The notes beneath the pieces were generated by a model. It did not search any database, was not told the origin of the DNA, and was given only the letters and a program-made list of their open reading frames with translations. Of a DNA stretch of 64,000 nt, positions 42,422-49,566 are shown in pieces. The translations under genes and the position numbers were made by a program. Where the stretch lies: assembly GCA_965115855.1 (NCBI GenBank), contig OZ220470.1, positions 1,335,376 to 1,399,375 of the forward strand, in the 5' to 3' direction. The DNA is from Vicinamibacteria bacterium (GTDB lineage Bacteria > Acidobacteriota > Vicinamibacteria > Marinacidobacterales > Marinacidobacteraceae). How positions within the stretch are numbered: position 1 is the stretch's first letter; the number at the start of each line of letters is the position of its first letter.

Positions 42422-43564
42422 GTGCCCCGATTCCGCTATCCCAGGTCCCTGATCGCCGACGAGGAGTGGGAGTACGCGCAGGCAGTGCGCGAATTCGCAG
42501 CCGGGGAAATCGCCCCCGAAAGCGGCGCCATGGAGCGCGCCGGCCGCATTCCGGCGCCCCTGACGGAACGGCTTGCCGATTTCGGCCTCTTCGGCGTCAC
42601 CGTTCCGGAGAAGTTCGGCGGAACCGGGTTCGATTTCTTCCACCTGGTGCTCACCGTGGAGGAACTGGCGCGTGCCGACGCGGCGGTGTCGCTGCTGGTG
42701 GATGTCCACGGCACCCTGATCGTCAATGCGGTGAGCCAGTTCGGAACGAAGGCGCAGCGCGACGAACTTCTCCCGCAGCTCGCCGGAGGCCGGATCGGGG
42801 CGTTTTCGCTTTCCGAGGCGGAAGCCGGAAGCGACGCCTTCGCGCTCCGGGCAACCGCCAGGGAAACCGAAGGCGGATTCGTCCTGAACGGCGCCAAGGC
42901 GTGGGTTTCCGGCGGGCGGGAAGCAGGGCTCTTCCTGATCTTCGCCCGTGCCCGGGAAGGCGTGACCGGTTTTCTGGTGGACGCCGCAACCCCCGGACTC
43001 CGGGTGGGGCCGCCGGAGGACAAGGTCGGCCTCCGCGCTTCCTCGACCACCCCCCTCTACCTCGAGGACTGCCTTGTTCCCCGGGACCGGATGCTCGGAC
43101 GGCCGGGACAGGGCCGCCGCATTGCGCTCGCCCTCCTGAACGAAGGGCGGATCGGAATCGCCGCCCAGCTCGTCGGTATCGGACAGGCGGCCCTCGACCT
43201 GGCGCTCGCCCACGCCGGGGAACGCCGGGCTTTCGGGGAGCCGATCTTCAGTTTCCAGGGAGTCTCGTTCGGGCTCGCCGACGCCGCCACCCGCCTCGAA
43301 AGCGCCCGGGTGCTCACCTGGAACGCCGCCCGGCTGGTGGATGAGGGCGGCGACCCGCACCGGGCGGCGGCGATGGCCAAGCTCACTGCCCAGCGGATGG
43401 CGGAGTGGGTGACTTCGCTCGCAGTGGAAGTGCTCGGCGGCATCGGATACACCAACGCCTCCCCCGCCGGAAAACTCTGGCGCGACGCCAAGGCGGGCAC
43501 CATCTACGAAGGAACCGCCAACATGCAGCTCCTGACGATCGCCCACACCCTGAAACGAAGCTGA
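42422..43564 (+). CDS. Acyl-CoA dehydrogenase (short/branched-chain type)
   Basis: FSLSEAEAGSD, LNGAKAW, EDKVGLRAS, GRIGIAAQ, IYEGT.NMQ. Confidence 0.92.
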   Translation: MPRFRYPRSLIADEEWEYAQAVREFAAGEIAPESGAMERAGRIPAPLTERLADFGLFGVTVPEKFGGTGFDFFHLVLTVEELARADAAVSLLVDVHGTLIVNAVSQFGTKAQRDELLPQLAGGRIGAFSLSEAEAGSDAFALRATARETEGGFVLNGAKAWVSGGREAGLFLIFARAREGVTGFLVDAATPGLRVGPPEDKVGLRASSTTPLYLEDCLVPRDRMLGRPGQGRRIALALLNEGRIGIAAQLVGIGQAALDLALAHAGERRAFGEPIFSFQGVSFGLADAATRLESARVLTWNAARLVDEGGDPHRAAAMAKLTAQRMAEWVTSLAVEVLGGIGYTNASPAGKLWRDAKAGTIYEGTANMQLLTIAHTLKRS

Positions 43565-43594
43565 AGGTCCGGTCCCACGGCGACGCAGTGTCCC

Positions 43595-45857
43595 GGATCC
43601 GCGCGCTCCCCGCCGAACAACCTGACCGGGCGGAAGTGTCGAACGCTCCCGACGGGAACGTGACTCCGGATCCCCTCTCTTCCCTTCGGGCGGGATCCGC
43701 GCCGACGCATCCTTCGGACCAACGGACGGGTCCGCGCGCTCCACGCCGAACAACCTGACCAGGCGGAAGTGCGAACGCTCCCGACGGAAACGAGACTCCG
43801 GATCCCCCCTCACTGCCTTCCGGTGGAGACTTGCGCCGACGCATCCTTCGGGCCGACCGACGGATCCGCGCGCTCCACGCGAACAACCTGACCGGGCGAA
43901 GGTGCGAACGCTCCCGACGGGAACGAGACTCCGGGTCACCTCTCTTCCCTTCGGGCGTGATCCGCGCCGACGCATCCTTCGGACCAACGGACGGGTCCGC
44001 GCGCTCCCCGCCGAACAACCTGACCAGGCGGAAGTGCGAACGCTCCCGACGGGAACGAGACTCCGGATCCCCCTCACCTCCCTCCGGTGGGGACTTGCGC
44101 CGACGCATCCTTCGGAACGACGGACGGATCCGTGCGCTCCATGCGAACAACCTGACCGGGCGGAGGTGCAAACGCTCCCGACGGAAACGAGACTCCGGGG
44201 CCCCTCTCTTCCCTTCGGTGGGAATCCGCGCCGGCGCATCCGCCGGACCGACGGTCGGATCCGCACGCTCCCCGCGAACAACCTGACCGGGCGGAGGTGT
44301 CGAACGCTCCCGACGGAAACGAGACTCCGGGTCACCCTCTCTTCCCTTCGGTGGGAATCCGCGCCGGCGCATCCGCCGGGCCGACGGTCGGATCCGCGCG
44401 CTCCACGCGAACAACCTGACCGGGCGGAGGTGCAAACGCTCCCGACGGAAACGAGACTCCGGGGCCCCTCTCTTCCCTTCGGTCGGGATCCGCGCCGGCG
44501 CATCCGCCGGACCGACGGTCGGATCCACGCGCTCCACGCGAACAACCTGACCGGGCGGAGGTGCAAACGCTCCCGACGGAAACGAGACTCCGGGGCCCCT
44601 CTCTTCCCTTCGGTCGGGATCCGCGCCAGCGCATCCTTCGGAACGACGGTCGGATTCGCACGCTCCACGCGAACAACGTGACCGGGCGGAAGTGCGAACG
44701 CTCCCGACGGAAACGAGACTCCGGGTCACCTCTCTTCCCTTCAGTCGGGATCCGCGCCGACGCATCCTTCGGACCAACGGTCGGATCCGCACGCTCCCCG
44801 CGAACAACCTGACCGGGCGGAGGTGTCGAACGCTCCCGACGGAAACGAGACTCCGGGTCACCCGCACTTCCCTTCGGTCGGGGTCCGCGCCGGCGCATCC
44901 GCCGGACCGACGGTCGGATCCGCGCGCTCCACGCGAACAACCTGACCGGGCGAAGGTGCGAACGCTCGCTCCACGCGAACAACCGACGGGAACAAGACTC
45001 CGGGTCACCCGCACTTCCCTTCGGTCGGGATCCGCGCCGGCGCATCCGCCGGACCGACGGACGGATCCGCGCGCTCCACGCGAGCAAACTGACCGGGCGG
45101 AGGTGCGAACGCTCCCGACGGAAACGAGACTCCGGGTCACCCTCTCTTCCCTTTGGTGGGAATCCGCGCCAGCGCATCCTTCGGACCGACGGTCGGATCC
45201 GCACGCTCCACGCGAACAACCTGACCGGGCGGAGGTGTCGAACGCTCCCGACGGAAACGAGACTCCGGGTCACCCTCTCTTCCCTTCGGTGGGAATCCGC
45301 GCCGACGCATCCGCCGGACCGACGGTCGGATCCACGCGCTCCCCGCGAACAACCTGACCGGGCGGAGGTGCAAACGCTCCCGACGGGAACGAGACTCCGG
45401 GTCACCCGCACTTCCCTTCGGTCGGGATCCGCGCCGACGCATCCTTCGGACCGACGGTCGGATCCGCGCGCTCCCCGCGAACAACCTGACCGGGCGGAGG
45501 TGTCGAACGCTCCCGACGGGAACGAGACTCCGGGTCACCCTCTCTTCCCTTCGGTGGGAATCCGCGCCGGCTCATCCGTCGGACCGACGGACGGATCCGC
45601 GCGCTCCCCGCGAACAACCTGACCGGGCGAAGGTGCGAACGCTCCCGACGGGAACGAGACTCCGGATCCCCCTCTCTTCCCTCCGGTGGGGACTTGCGCC
45701 GACGCATCCGTCGGGCCGACCGACGGATCCGTGCGCTCCCCGCGAACAACCTGACCGGGCGAAGGTGCGAACGCTCCCGACGGGAACGAGACTCCGGATC
45801 CCCCCTCTCTTCCCTCCGGTGGGGACTTGCGCCGACGCATCCTTCGGGCCGACGGAC
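43595..45857. repeat. Intergenic tandem array of 17 imperfect ~131-133-bp units
   Basis: Marker GAACAACCTGACC (with variants) recurs at about 43615, 43748, 43881, 44014, 44146, 44277, 44409, 44540, 44671, 44802, 44935, 45082, 45214, 45347, 45479, 45612 and 45744. Confidence 0.95.
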
Positions 45858-45959
45858 CCGCCTGCCCCGCGGGTTCGCCAGAACCATCCGTTCCCGACGC
45901 CCGGTGTCCCGCCATGTTATCCGCAGCAGGACGGCTCGTGCCAGAGTAAGCTCTGCTCC

Positions 45960-46535
45960 ATGAACGTCAGACTCCCGCGGCTCCGTCCACTCGGTTTTCT
46001 CCTTTTTCTCATGGCCGGGGGGACCGCAGTTGCCCAGCACGGGCCCGACCGCCAGGAGCGAATGAGCCATCCGTACGCCTGGCCGGCGGCCGGCGAGCTT
46101 GTCGAGAAATCGCACACGATCGTCGCCGGCGAGGTGACCGACACCCATTCGGCCTGGAACGGGGATCGCAGCGAGATCTTCACCACGGTGACGCTCCGGG
46201 TCGAGCAGACCCTCCGGGGCAGCGCGCGCCCCGACGTCCGGTTCCGGGTTCCCGGCGGGACCGTGGGCGACACCAGATTGACGGTGACCCATACCCCCCG
46301 GTTCGCGGTGGGCGAACGGGCCCTGGTGTTCCTGTCCGGAAATCCCGGTCGCTTGCCGCAGGTGACCGCCGGGGAAGCCGGCAAGCGCATCCTGCACAGG
46401 GACGAGGCCGGGAAGGAACACATCCTCCCGCCCCTCGCCGTCTCGGCTTCCCCGTCCGGGACGCCGGCGCTCCACACGCTGGACGAGTTCGCCGAATCCC
46501 TTCGGGATCCGGTGCTCCTCCACCAGCAGCGGTGA
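45960..46535 (+). CDS. Secreted hypothetical protein
   Basis: Signal peptide (..AVAQ); ELV..S..IV.GEV...IFT.VT..VE..L.G...PGGTVG...P.F..GER..VFL pattern. Confidence 0.65.
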   Translation: MNVRLPRLRPLGFLLFLMAGGTAVAQHGPDRQERMSHPYAWPAAGELVEKSHTIVAGEVTDTHSAWNGDRSEIFTTVTLRVEQTLRGSARPDVRFRVPGGTVGDTRLTVTHTPRFAVGERALVFLSGNPGRLPQVTAGEAGKRILHRDEAGKEHILPPLAVSASPSGTPALHTLDEFAESLRDPVLLHQQR

Positions 46536-46584: not shown

Positions 46585-47436
46585 ATGAAAAAGCTCGGCA
46601 TTGCCTTTCAGGGCCTGCCCGGCTCCTACTCCGACCTCGCCTGCCGCGATCTCTATCCGGGCCATGAGCCCCTTGCGTGCAGCACGCTGGTCGAGGCGTG
46701 CGCAGCGGTCACCGGGCACCGCGCCGAGATGGCCATGGTCCCGGTGGACAATTCGGTGGCCGGACCGGTGGCGGATGTCCATCGCCTCCTCCCCGGGTCC
46801 GGGCTCCATGTGGTCGCCGAGACCTTTCAGCGGGTACGACACCAGTTGCTGGGACTCCCCGGCGCCACCCTCGAGGGTCTTTCGACCGTTCACAGCCACG
46901 TGCACGCATTGGCGCAATGTCGCAAGCTGATCCAGCGGCTGAAACTCTCGTCCGTGATCGAGGCCGACACGGCGGGCGCCGCGGCGCGGGTTGCCACCGA
47001 CGGCGATCCGAGCCAGGCAGCCATCGCGTCGGCGCTGGCAGCGGAGATTCACGGACTCACGATTCTCGAGGCGGATGTCGAGGATTCCCCGCGCAACACC
47101 ACCCGCTTCCTGGTGATGGCGAGGGATCCCCGGGAGTCCTCGCCCGGCGAAGCGATGATCACCAGCCTGTTCTTCGAGGTGAAGAACATTCCGGCTGCGC
47201 TCTACAAGGCGCTCGGGGGATTCGCGACGAACGGAGTCAACCTGTTGCGGCTCGAGAGCACGATGCTGGATCGCTCGTTCACCTCCACCCGGTTCTTCTG
47301 CGATATCGACGGCCATCCGGAGGATCCGGGGGTGGAGCGGGCGCTGGACGAGCTCTGGTATTTCTCCAGTTCGGTCACGATCATCGGCTCCTACCCCGCC
47401 GACCCGATCCGTAGCCGGGCCGGACGTCCGGCCTGA
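46585..47436 (+). CDS. pheA: Prephenate dehydratase
   Basis: AFQG.PGSYS, PVDNS..G, SHVHALAQC, DTAGAA, NTTRFLV, ACT domain (PAALYKALGGFATNGVN..RLES). Confidence 0.92.
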   Translation: MKKLGIAFQGLPGSYSDLACRDLYPGHEPLACSTLVEACAAVTGHRAEMAMVPVDNSVAGPVADVHRLLPGSGLHVVAETFQRVRHQLLGLPGATLEGLSTVHSHVHALAQCRKLIQRLKLSSVIEADTAGAAARVATDGDPSQAAIASALAAEIHGLTILEADVEDSPRNTTRFLVMARDPRESSPGEAMITSLFFEVKNIPAALYKALGGFATNGVNLLRLESTMLDRSFTSTRFFCDIDGHPEDPGVERALDELWYFSSSVTIIGSYPADPIRSRAGRPA

Positions 47437-49030: not shown

Positions 49031-49566
49031 CGGCTACGAGCCCCAGCGAAACCCCGGCCACCACGGCACCGGGTCATCCCGTATCCAGGAGGGAGCGACC
49101 CGGGACTCCGGACGCCACGGTTCCTCAAGCGAGGCCCCCGTGACCGCCTTGCCGCGACGCACCGGCTACGAGCCCCAACGAAACCCCGGACGCCACGGCA
49201 CCGGGTCATCCCGTATCCAGGAGGGAGCGACCCGGGACTCCGGACGCCACGGTTCCTCAAGCGAGGCCCCCGTGACCGCCTTGCCGCGACGCACCGGCTA
49301 CGAGCCCCAACGAAACCCCGGACGCCACGGCACCGGGTCATCCCGTATCCAGGAGGGAGCGACCCGGGACTCCGGACGCCACGGTTCCTCAAGCGAGGCC
49401 CCCGTGACCGCCTTGCCGCGACGCGCCGGCTACGAGCCCCAACGAAACCCCGGCCGCCACGGCACCGGGTCATCCCGCATCCAGGAGGGAGCGACCCGGG
49501 ACTCCGGACGCCACGGTTCCTCAAGCGAGGCCCCCGTGACCGCCTTGCCGCGACGCACCGGCTACG
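49031..49566. repeat. Intergenic tandem array of four nearly identical 132-bp units with degenerate flanking copies
   Basis: CGGCTACG recurs at 49031, 49163, 49295, 49427 and 49559. Decayed related sequence extends to about 48900 and about 49740. Confidence 0.95.

Follow-up and report, generated by a model that had tools for sequence, protein, structure and literature searches.

We examined a 64,000-nucleotide stretch of the chromosome of a Vicinamibacteria bacterium (hereafter the window), which corresponds to positions 1335376-1399375 of the single contig C1 of its 3.0-Mb genome (G000:C1:1335376-1399375). At window positions 43594..45856, a tandem array of 17 units separates two genes that are both encoded on the + strand: an acyl-CoA dehydrogenase gene on its left (42422..43564; Pfam Acyl-CoA_dh_1/N/M, E = 3e-42 to 1.4e-21) and, as the first gene after the array, a small gene call on its right (45960..46535). 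The array itself, which has no assigned strand, was delimited by Tandem Repeats Finder (TRF), unit starts, alignments and base composition. It is bordered on both sides by unique DNA: 29 bp connect the dehydrogenase stop codon to the first unit (43565..43593, defined from the sequence and by comparison with a sister species), and 103 bp lie between the last unit and the small gene (45857..45959, defined by the same comparison). The small gene encodes a 191-residue protein with a hydrophobic N-terminus that is 59% identical to its syntenic counterpart in the sister species (designated L021 and G001); no Pfam family was matched by this protein, and we label it a small secreted-protein gene of unassigned family. 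Further downstream, on the same strand as the neighbors of the array, is a prephenate dehydratase gene (46585..47436, + strand; Pfam PDT, E = 9.1e-50). The surrounding region also encodes PheRS alpha and beta, an NtrC-type regulator, a TonB-dependent receptor, TsaD, ATP synthase and Nuo subunits; these are housekeeping genes, and no mobile-element genes were found among the neighbors of the array. As detailed below, the array is probably a young, non-coding minisatellite that was produced by replication slippage and recombination.

Repeat detection and the anchoring of unit starts agree on the anatomy of the array. TRF reports a period of 133 bp with 17.0 copies, 88% matches, 2% indels and a score of 3143 (43594-45855/45857), and it alternatively scores the same DNA as a 265-bp dimer that is present 8.5 times (score 3208). 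When anchored at their starts, the units measure 131 bp (n = 5), 132 bp (n = 3), 133 bp (n = 7), 134 bp (n = 1) and, in the case of unit 11, 147 bp. These values agree with the initial annotation, which was made from the sequence alone and had described 17 tandem units of mostly 131-133 bp, with one ~147-bp unit containing an internal duplication. The additional DNA in unit 11 is a 15-bp insertion (44968..44982, likewise without an assigned strand) that sequence inspection and alignment identify as a copy of the unit’s own 5’ part (GCTCCACGCGAACAA). Both the insert and its 5’ source are preceded by GCTC and followed by CC, and we infer that the copy arose by a template switch at these short homologies. 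Approximately 86 alignment columns per unit are invariant, and the + strand of the array is composed of 17% A, 39% C, 31% G and 13% T.

The relationships among the units indicate that they have exchanged sequence. Pairwise identities range from 74 to 98% across the 17 units. Units 1 and 3, as well as units 2 and 4, are each 93% alike, as compared to 84-85% for units 1/2 and 3/4, which recovers the ABAB pattern that had been noticed in units 1-4. The edge units (2, 4, 16 and 17) have variants in common and are 90-93% alike, whereas they are only 81-87% like the five core units 5 to 9; the closest core pairs reach 97-98%. At the 32 informative sites in the array units, all four haplotypes are present in 219 of the 496 site pairs, and the earlier description of the units as mosaics shaped by recombination is thus upheld. 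Three features fit a model in which slippage, template switching and recombination remodel the array, namely the mosaicism, the divergence of the edge units from the core, and the 15-bp copy in unit 11 with its flanking microhomologies. An array of clustered regularly interspaced short palindromic repeats (CRISPR) was ruled out, as it had been in the initial annotation, because the 132-bp unit is repeated in its entirety and there are no unique spacers.

The array does not encode protein, in agreement with the earlier claim. Stop codons occur in all six frames, and the lengths of the units shift the reading frame. A codon model trained on this genome assigns the array log-odds of -0.24 to -0.27 per codon in the six frames, as compared to +0.20 to +0.33 for the neighboring genes. 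In addition, a crude gene caller, which yields 2125 genes and classifies 84% of the genome as coding, places nothing between 43565 and 45959. A hidden repeat protein was also considered and rejected, as none of the four long open reading frames (ORFs) crossing the array has a match in Pfam and there is no coding signal.

We compared the locus with that of the sister species, where the gene order is conserved and the dehydrogenase is 90% identical at the amino acid level. The distance from the dehydrogenase stop codon to the next ATG is 11 bp in the sister species versus 2395 bp here, and thus ~2.39 kb of the DNA at this junction is new. Homology to the sister species stops at 43557 and resumes at the sequence TAAGCTC (45947-45953). 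TAAGCTC matches the stop codon and spacer of the sister species and marks the former end of the dehydrogenase gene, so that the old junction up to the ATG can still be recognized (45947-45962), stranded just ahead of the next gene. The insertion also altered the end of the dehydrogenase: its C-terminus reads LKRS* here (window 43550-43564) and LKRGASG* in the sister species, making it three residues shorter. The junction comparison shows that the array is of recent origin and arose after the split from the sister species. The unique flanks were also considered as decayed partial units, and this idea was dropped, because shuffled sequences score as well: the resemblance of the left flank to a unit is not above chance (its score is reached by 148 of 300 shuffles), and the same is true of the right flank (157 of 300).

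Contigs from additional sequencing runs provide independent support for the array. Those of run X1, which were assembled from short reads, extend into it from either flank with 0 differences. Run X2 represents a different strain, as its contigs differ from the flanking sequence at 15 of 1239 nt (1.2%) and 29 of 1572 nt (1.8%), and they too run into the first and last units, at 43638 and 45829. The entry of both sets of contigs into the array indicates that the array is real and that it predates the split of the X2 strain. One short-read contig from a third run, X3, joins position 43934 in unit 3 to position 45801 in unit 17 with 2 other letters in between, skipping 1866 nt or 14 units; this joint may reflect a shorter allele or an assembly collapse. 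It is also the observation that, together with the general proneness of repeats to assembly error, could suggest that the array is an artefact of the long-read metagenome assembly. We consider such an artefact exceedingly unlikely, as the units differ from one another by 2-26% and do so in a fixed order, and as contigs of two further runs, one of them from a different strain, reach into the array from both sides, whereas the X3 joint may itself be a short-read collapse.

The unit is restricted to this locus. A BLAST search of the unit against the 3.017-Mb single-contig genome returned 17 matches, all 17 of which lie inside the array, and in 60 relatives the same search produced just 19-44-nt matches at chance level (E of at least 2.1e-4). 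A covariance model built on the units (R1) recovered 17 hits in this genome and 0 in 100 relatives at E<=0.01. A pattern for the 28-nt core was found neither in genome_contigs nor in metagenome_contigs (0 matches in each), and searches of plasmid and phage collections in distant mode gave no match to the unit. The initial annotation had proposed a search for homologous arrays elsewhere, and none was found in this genome, in the 60 relatives examined by BLAST or in the 100 examined with the covariance model. It had also listed among its options an element resembling bacterial interspersed mosaic elements (BIME) or doublets of repetitive extragenic palindromes (REP) that form hairpins (REPIN); we considered a cluster of such mobile elements. 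REP/BIME/REPIN sequences are ~20-40 bp hairpins or doublets that occur in tens to hundreds of dispersed copies and are linked to a gene for a REP-associated tyrosine transposase (RAYT). The units resemble them in being GC-rich and intergenic and in having palindromic segments; however, the unit is long and undispersed, relatives contain no copies, and no match to the Y1/RAYT transposase (PF01797) was found in this genome, which is 93.5% complete. We therefore give this option, which the data already contradict, almost no credence. Separately, four identical 24-nt weak matches to unit positions 91-114 are located 2.5-5 kb apart at G000:C1:1745742-1756015; they point to a repeated gene or element family, and their likeness to the unit is at chance level.

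Each unit was initially annotated as forming two covarying hairpins, and the array was therefore interpreted as a structured repeat family that might be transcribed and processed into ~17 structured RNAs of ~130 nt. The capacity to form hairpins was confirmed: the inverted repeats exist, two hairpins per unit are possible, and 88% of the cells in the alignment pair. When the pairing partners are slid by 1-3 columns this value falls to 40-63%, although the sliding control favors structures that were read off the very sequences being tested. Shuffles yield 87.3-87.5% paired cells on the proposed hairpins, and the 88% pairing is thus explained by column composition alone. The claimed covariation was not confirmed. 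In RNAalifold, which had been suggested as a check, covariation contributes -0.32 kcal/mol to a total of -25.55 for the + strand and -0.92 kcal/mol to a total of -34.13 for the - strand. The covariation score is not above controls, as shuffles reach it in 54 of 500 and in 58 of 500 trials. The earlier counts of variants in the inner stem around the CATC loop (5, 7, 1 and 4 units) were reproduced exactly in the alignment, but a change on both sides is present in just one pair, formed by columns 122-131. The adjacent pair, 123-130, is unpaired in 9 of the 17 units, and because of this the seven-unit variant CCGACG/CTTCGG contains a C-T mismatch. The apparent G-C to A-T switch is a single haplotype in which a G to A change is linked to a change of GC to TT, and this haplotype also brings in the C-T mismatch.

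Other tests of the structured RNA interpretation gave similar results. Rfam, another suggested check, has 0 matches at E<=1 on either strand of the array, and the fold energies of 4 of the 17 units, calculated on both strands, are no better than those of dinucleotide shuffles (z = -1.57 to +1.82). No promoter-like or terminator-like sites were found in 43300-46200, and hence there are none within the individual units. The lack of a terminator-like site between the upstream gene and the array makes read-through into it plausible, which, along with the two potential hairpins, is what can be said for an RNA array; however, the structure-aware model finds no homologue in 100 relatives, and the array is absent from the sister species. 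The array also differs in these respects from NsiR1 of the Nostocales, a tandem small-RNA array in which each unit has its own promoter and terminator and which is conserved across species; the two have in common that units of ~100 bp or more are repeated within one intergenic region. We found no support for a structured-RNA reading, and processing of the array into small RNAs is very doubtful. The initial annotation had stated in advance that a lack of significant covariation, of transcription and of homologous arrays elsewhere would together make the array a neutral local minisatellite, and the first and the last of these three outcomes were observed. The case also serves as a caution: when an array is young, units that can form hairpins and seem to covary do not amount to evidence of an RNA gene.

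These results lead us to favor a model in which slippage and recombination generated the array. In this model, ~2.39 kb of new DNA appeared at the former 11-bp junction between the dehydrogenase and the next gene after the split from the sister species, and a ~132-bp unit was then multiplied to 17 copies. Reshuffling of the units would have continued ever since, through slippage during replication, through template switches and through unequal recombination or gene conversion between units. Their hairpin-capable inverted repeats would be traits of the seed that happened to be amplified and would not reflect selection for an RNA fold. Given that the two genes were originally 11 bp apart and that no terminator-like site separates the upstream gene from the array, the array is probably part of the operon transcript but untranslated, so that it would be read through as a 2.4-kb spacer inside the former operon. 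Rho could terminate transcription within the array and thereby uncouple the downstream genes; as a rho gene is present in the genome and the + strand is rich in C relative to G, Rho-dependent polarity on these genes would be a reasonable consequence. The locus illustrates how closely spaced genes of an operon can come to lie 2.4 kb from each other while the downstream genes are kept.

An alternative is that the array is a scaffold to which a nucleoid or regulatory protein binds repeatedly, serving for instance as a decoy or as an insulator between the two genes. The array offers 17 near-identical, regularly spaced sites with a large number of invariant columns, and two sigma-54 activator genes are located within 6 kb of it. 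Such invariance is, however, expected of any young array, no motif was found that this array shares with the other 44 arrays of the genome that are described below, and relatives keep the same genes without an array. We judge a scaffold to be very improbable.

To place the array in a genomic context, we applied TRF to the whole genome (thresholds of >=250 bp, >=3 copies and period >=25). This identified 58 arrays. Two are of the CRISPR type, 11 fall within gene calls, and the remaining 45 are located outside gene calls. The array in the window, referred to below as the focal array, is the largest of these 45. Their units range from 30 to 171 bp with 72-98% matches, and no pair of the 45 consensus units is related at E<=1e-3. 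More of the periods than expected are multiples of 3 (25 of 45, p = 0.0018), with 72 bp occurring 4 times and 144 bp 3 times. Such periods are found in 8 of 11 possibly genic arrays as compared to 3 of 10 arrays with stops in all frames; since the excess resides mainly among open-frame arrays, some of the 45 may be unrecognized coding repeats. At the level of the chromosome, the focal array would be one product of a genome-wide tendency to grow unrelated arrays in short spacers.

The 45 arrays are nearly uniform in their orientation relative to replication. Judging from cumulative GC and TA skew, replication starts near 2.01 Mb and ends near 0.36 Mb; dnaA is located at 2.037 Mb. With respect to these positions, the leading strand contains more T than A in 42 of the 45 arrays and more G than C in 36 of them. 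The median TA skew is 0.37 for the arrays and 0.053 for the rest of the intergenic regions (n = 747; p = 5.5e-16 in a Mann-Whitney test). This polarity is independent of the direction of the flanking genes (9 of 18), and only 1128 of the 2125 genes (53%) are co-oriented with replication. Of the 34 arrays that are not connected in frame to coding-like flanks, 31 show it, as do 9 of the 10 in which all six frames are interrupted by stops. The polarity of the focal array agrees in sign with that of the others, but its skews are weak (TA 0.13, GC 0.12).

Relatives of this bacterium carry far fewer arrays. With the same TRF thresholds, this genome contains 4-12 arrays per 400-kb block (7 blocks) versus 0-3 in its relatives, a comparison that covered 14-42% of each relative’s genome (0.4-1.2 Mb in each of 4 relatives). 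Specifically, G001 has 4 arrays in 1.2 Mb, while the first 400 kb of G002, G003 and G007 contain 2, 2 and 1, respectively, and 4 of these 9 arrays have a CRISPR-like TRF profile that is long and of low identity. Each of five further arrays that we examined in this genome (5 of 5) has no counterpart in one or more congeners, whose syntenic spacer measures 6-347 bp as compared to 780-1670 bp here. One of these five spacers contains an array in the sister species as well: a 57-bp x 22 array at G000:C1:2157236-2158504 faces an unrelated 138-bp x 5.9 array at G001:C1:1838831-1839639 (best E 0.061). Both periods are multiples of 3, and this spacer may be a hot spot of repeat birth or a fast-evolving segment encoding disordered protein. 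A comparison of repair and polymerase genes in five genomes did not reveal a candidate cause of the repeat burst, as MutS, MutL and the PolA 5’ nuclease are present and intact in this genome and in the 4 relatives, and PolB and reverse transcriptase were found in 0 of 5. Among open-access papers and preprints, we found no account of replication-polarized minisatellite bursts in bacterial chromosomes, nor any of tandem arrays in Vicinamibacteria.

The number and orientation of these arrays raise the possibility that a dedicated, replication-coupled process introduces new sequence into short spacers and then amplifies it, always in the same strand orientation. This explanation overlaps with the one we favor and differs from it by adding a specific generator in place of ordinary slippage. 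It would account for 45 unrelated arrays outside gene calls, for a polarity that persists in the non-coding subsets and is not tied to gene direction, and for an array density above that of the relatives. There would also be a counterpart in Borgs, archaeal extrachromosomal elements with all genes on one strand, whose repeats are described as genome-specific, independently arisen and A-enriched (PMC9879509). Against it, no candidate generator emerged from the gene comparison, only a part of each relative’s genome was sampled, the sign of the polarity equals that of the ordinary skew, and the units are long and imperfect, unlike those of Borgs. We therefore regard it only as a tentative proposal, somewhat unlikely as it stands, that this lineage has or recently had a replication-coupled writer of unrelated arrays whose T- and G-rich strand is always the leading one, with the focal array as its largest product.

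The likeness to Borg repeats can be made more specific. In both cases there are many arrays per genome, each with its own sequence and recently formed, they are absent or virtually absent from related or host genomes, they occur between as well as inside genes, and they may have a strand-specific A/T bias in common (PMC9879509). The likeness in A enrichment is tentative: A exceeds T on the lagging strand in 42 of the 45 arrays, and the focal array is only weakly enriched (A 17%, T 13%). The Borg units are described as perfect, with examples of 18-21 nt, and as flanked by partial repeats (PMC9879509), whereas the arrays studied here have units of 30-171 bp that are 72-98% matched and reside in a bacterial chromosome with mixed gene strands, and the focal array has no detectable partial-repeat flanks in the shuffling controls described above.

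Several observations weigh against a neutral origin by slippage and recombination, which we nevertheless consider the probable explanation of the array. First, the 11-bp spacer is too short to have provided the 132-bp seed, no match to the seed was found in any of the genomes and collections searched, and the flanks are not detectably decayed units. Second, the array persists in two strains that are 1.2-1.8% apart. Third, a change in copy number between strains is what defines a variable-number tandem repeat (VNTR), and the short-read contigs break inside the array. Fourth, the inverted repeats are kept in 88% of cells, so that hairpins may have a role in DNA or RNA. Lastly, the polarity of the 45 arrays is far stronger than ordinary mutational skew, which points to a directed process or to selection that neutral slippage does not predict.

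Considered alone, the focal array is an ordinary, if large, bacterial minisatellite. It consists of direct repeats with a unit size within ~10-200 bp, it is non-coding, and its units are exchanged or homogenized. Bacterial minisatellites and VNTRs are similar in that their non-coding units of tens to ~100 bp or more are arranged head-to-tail in intergenic spacers, as is the case here at a probably intra-operon site in a GC-rich host, and in their fast, lineage-specific evolution by slippage and recombination. With 17 units of 132 bp (2.26 kb), the focal array is large for this class. The VNTRs formed by mycobacterial interspersed repetitive units (MIRU-VNTR) are minisatellites located in the intergenic spacers of operons. 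MIRUs belong to one dispersed sequence family, whereas the unit described here is found at one locus only and shows no relationship to any of the other 44 arrays.

A further parallel comes from Planctomycetota, where intergenic tandem repeats are described as hot spots of structural variation in long-read metagenome-assembled genomes, differ between close genotypes and are ascribed to polymerase slippage (PMC9426551). These repeats are likewise non-coding, intergenic and found in uncultured bacteria; in the part of that paper that concerns them, they are mentioned in passing, without a census, polarity or unit anatomy (PMC9426551).

It is the genomic context of the array that is noteworthy, as one 3.0-Mb chromosome contains 45 unrelated arrays with a near-uniform orientation relative to replication, and those that were examined are missing from the spacers of sister species. 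This replication-polarized, genome-wide burst of unrelated arrays is the unexplained part of the observations. If a specific mechanism were responsible, the genome would provide a tractable bacterial case for the birth of tandem repeats, a question that is open for Borgs as well.

Other repeats were observed in the window and elsewhere on the chromosome. The window contains another of the 45 arrays, which is unrelated to the focal one and spans 49031-49566 with 4.1 copies of a 132-bp unit at 98% matches. It is located in a 1.29-kb divergent spacer between an NtrC-like gene and a TonB-dependent receptor gene, where it creates a spurious repeat-peptide extension of the NtrC ORF; synteny with the sister species ends past the NtrC-like gene and short of this array. 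The two CRISPR-type arrays, at G000:C1:2537837-2540471 and 2542218-2550002, have a TRF period of 74, ~33 and ~104 copies, respectively, and a common conserved repeat of ~37 nt that differs from the unit of the focal array. Lastly, coding repeats of 318/321 bp and 276 bp are present in very long genes at more than 12 loci on both strands (e.g. 783282-785077, 790349-792099 and 2868385-2870739), and these look like large repeat-domain surface proteins.

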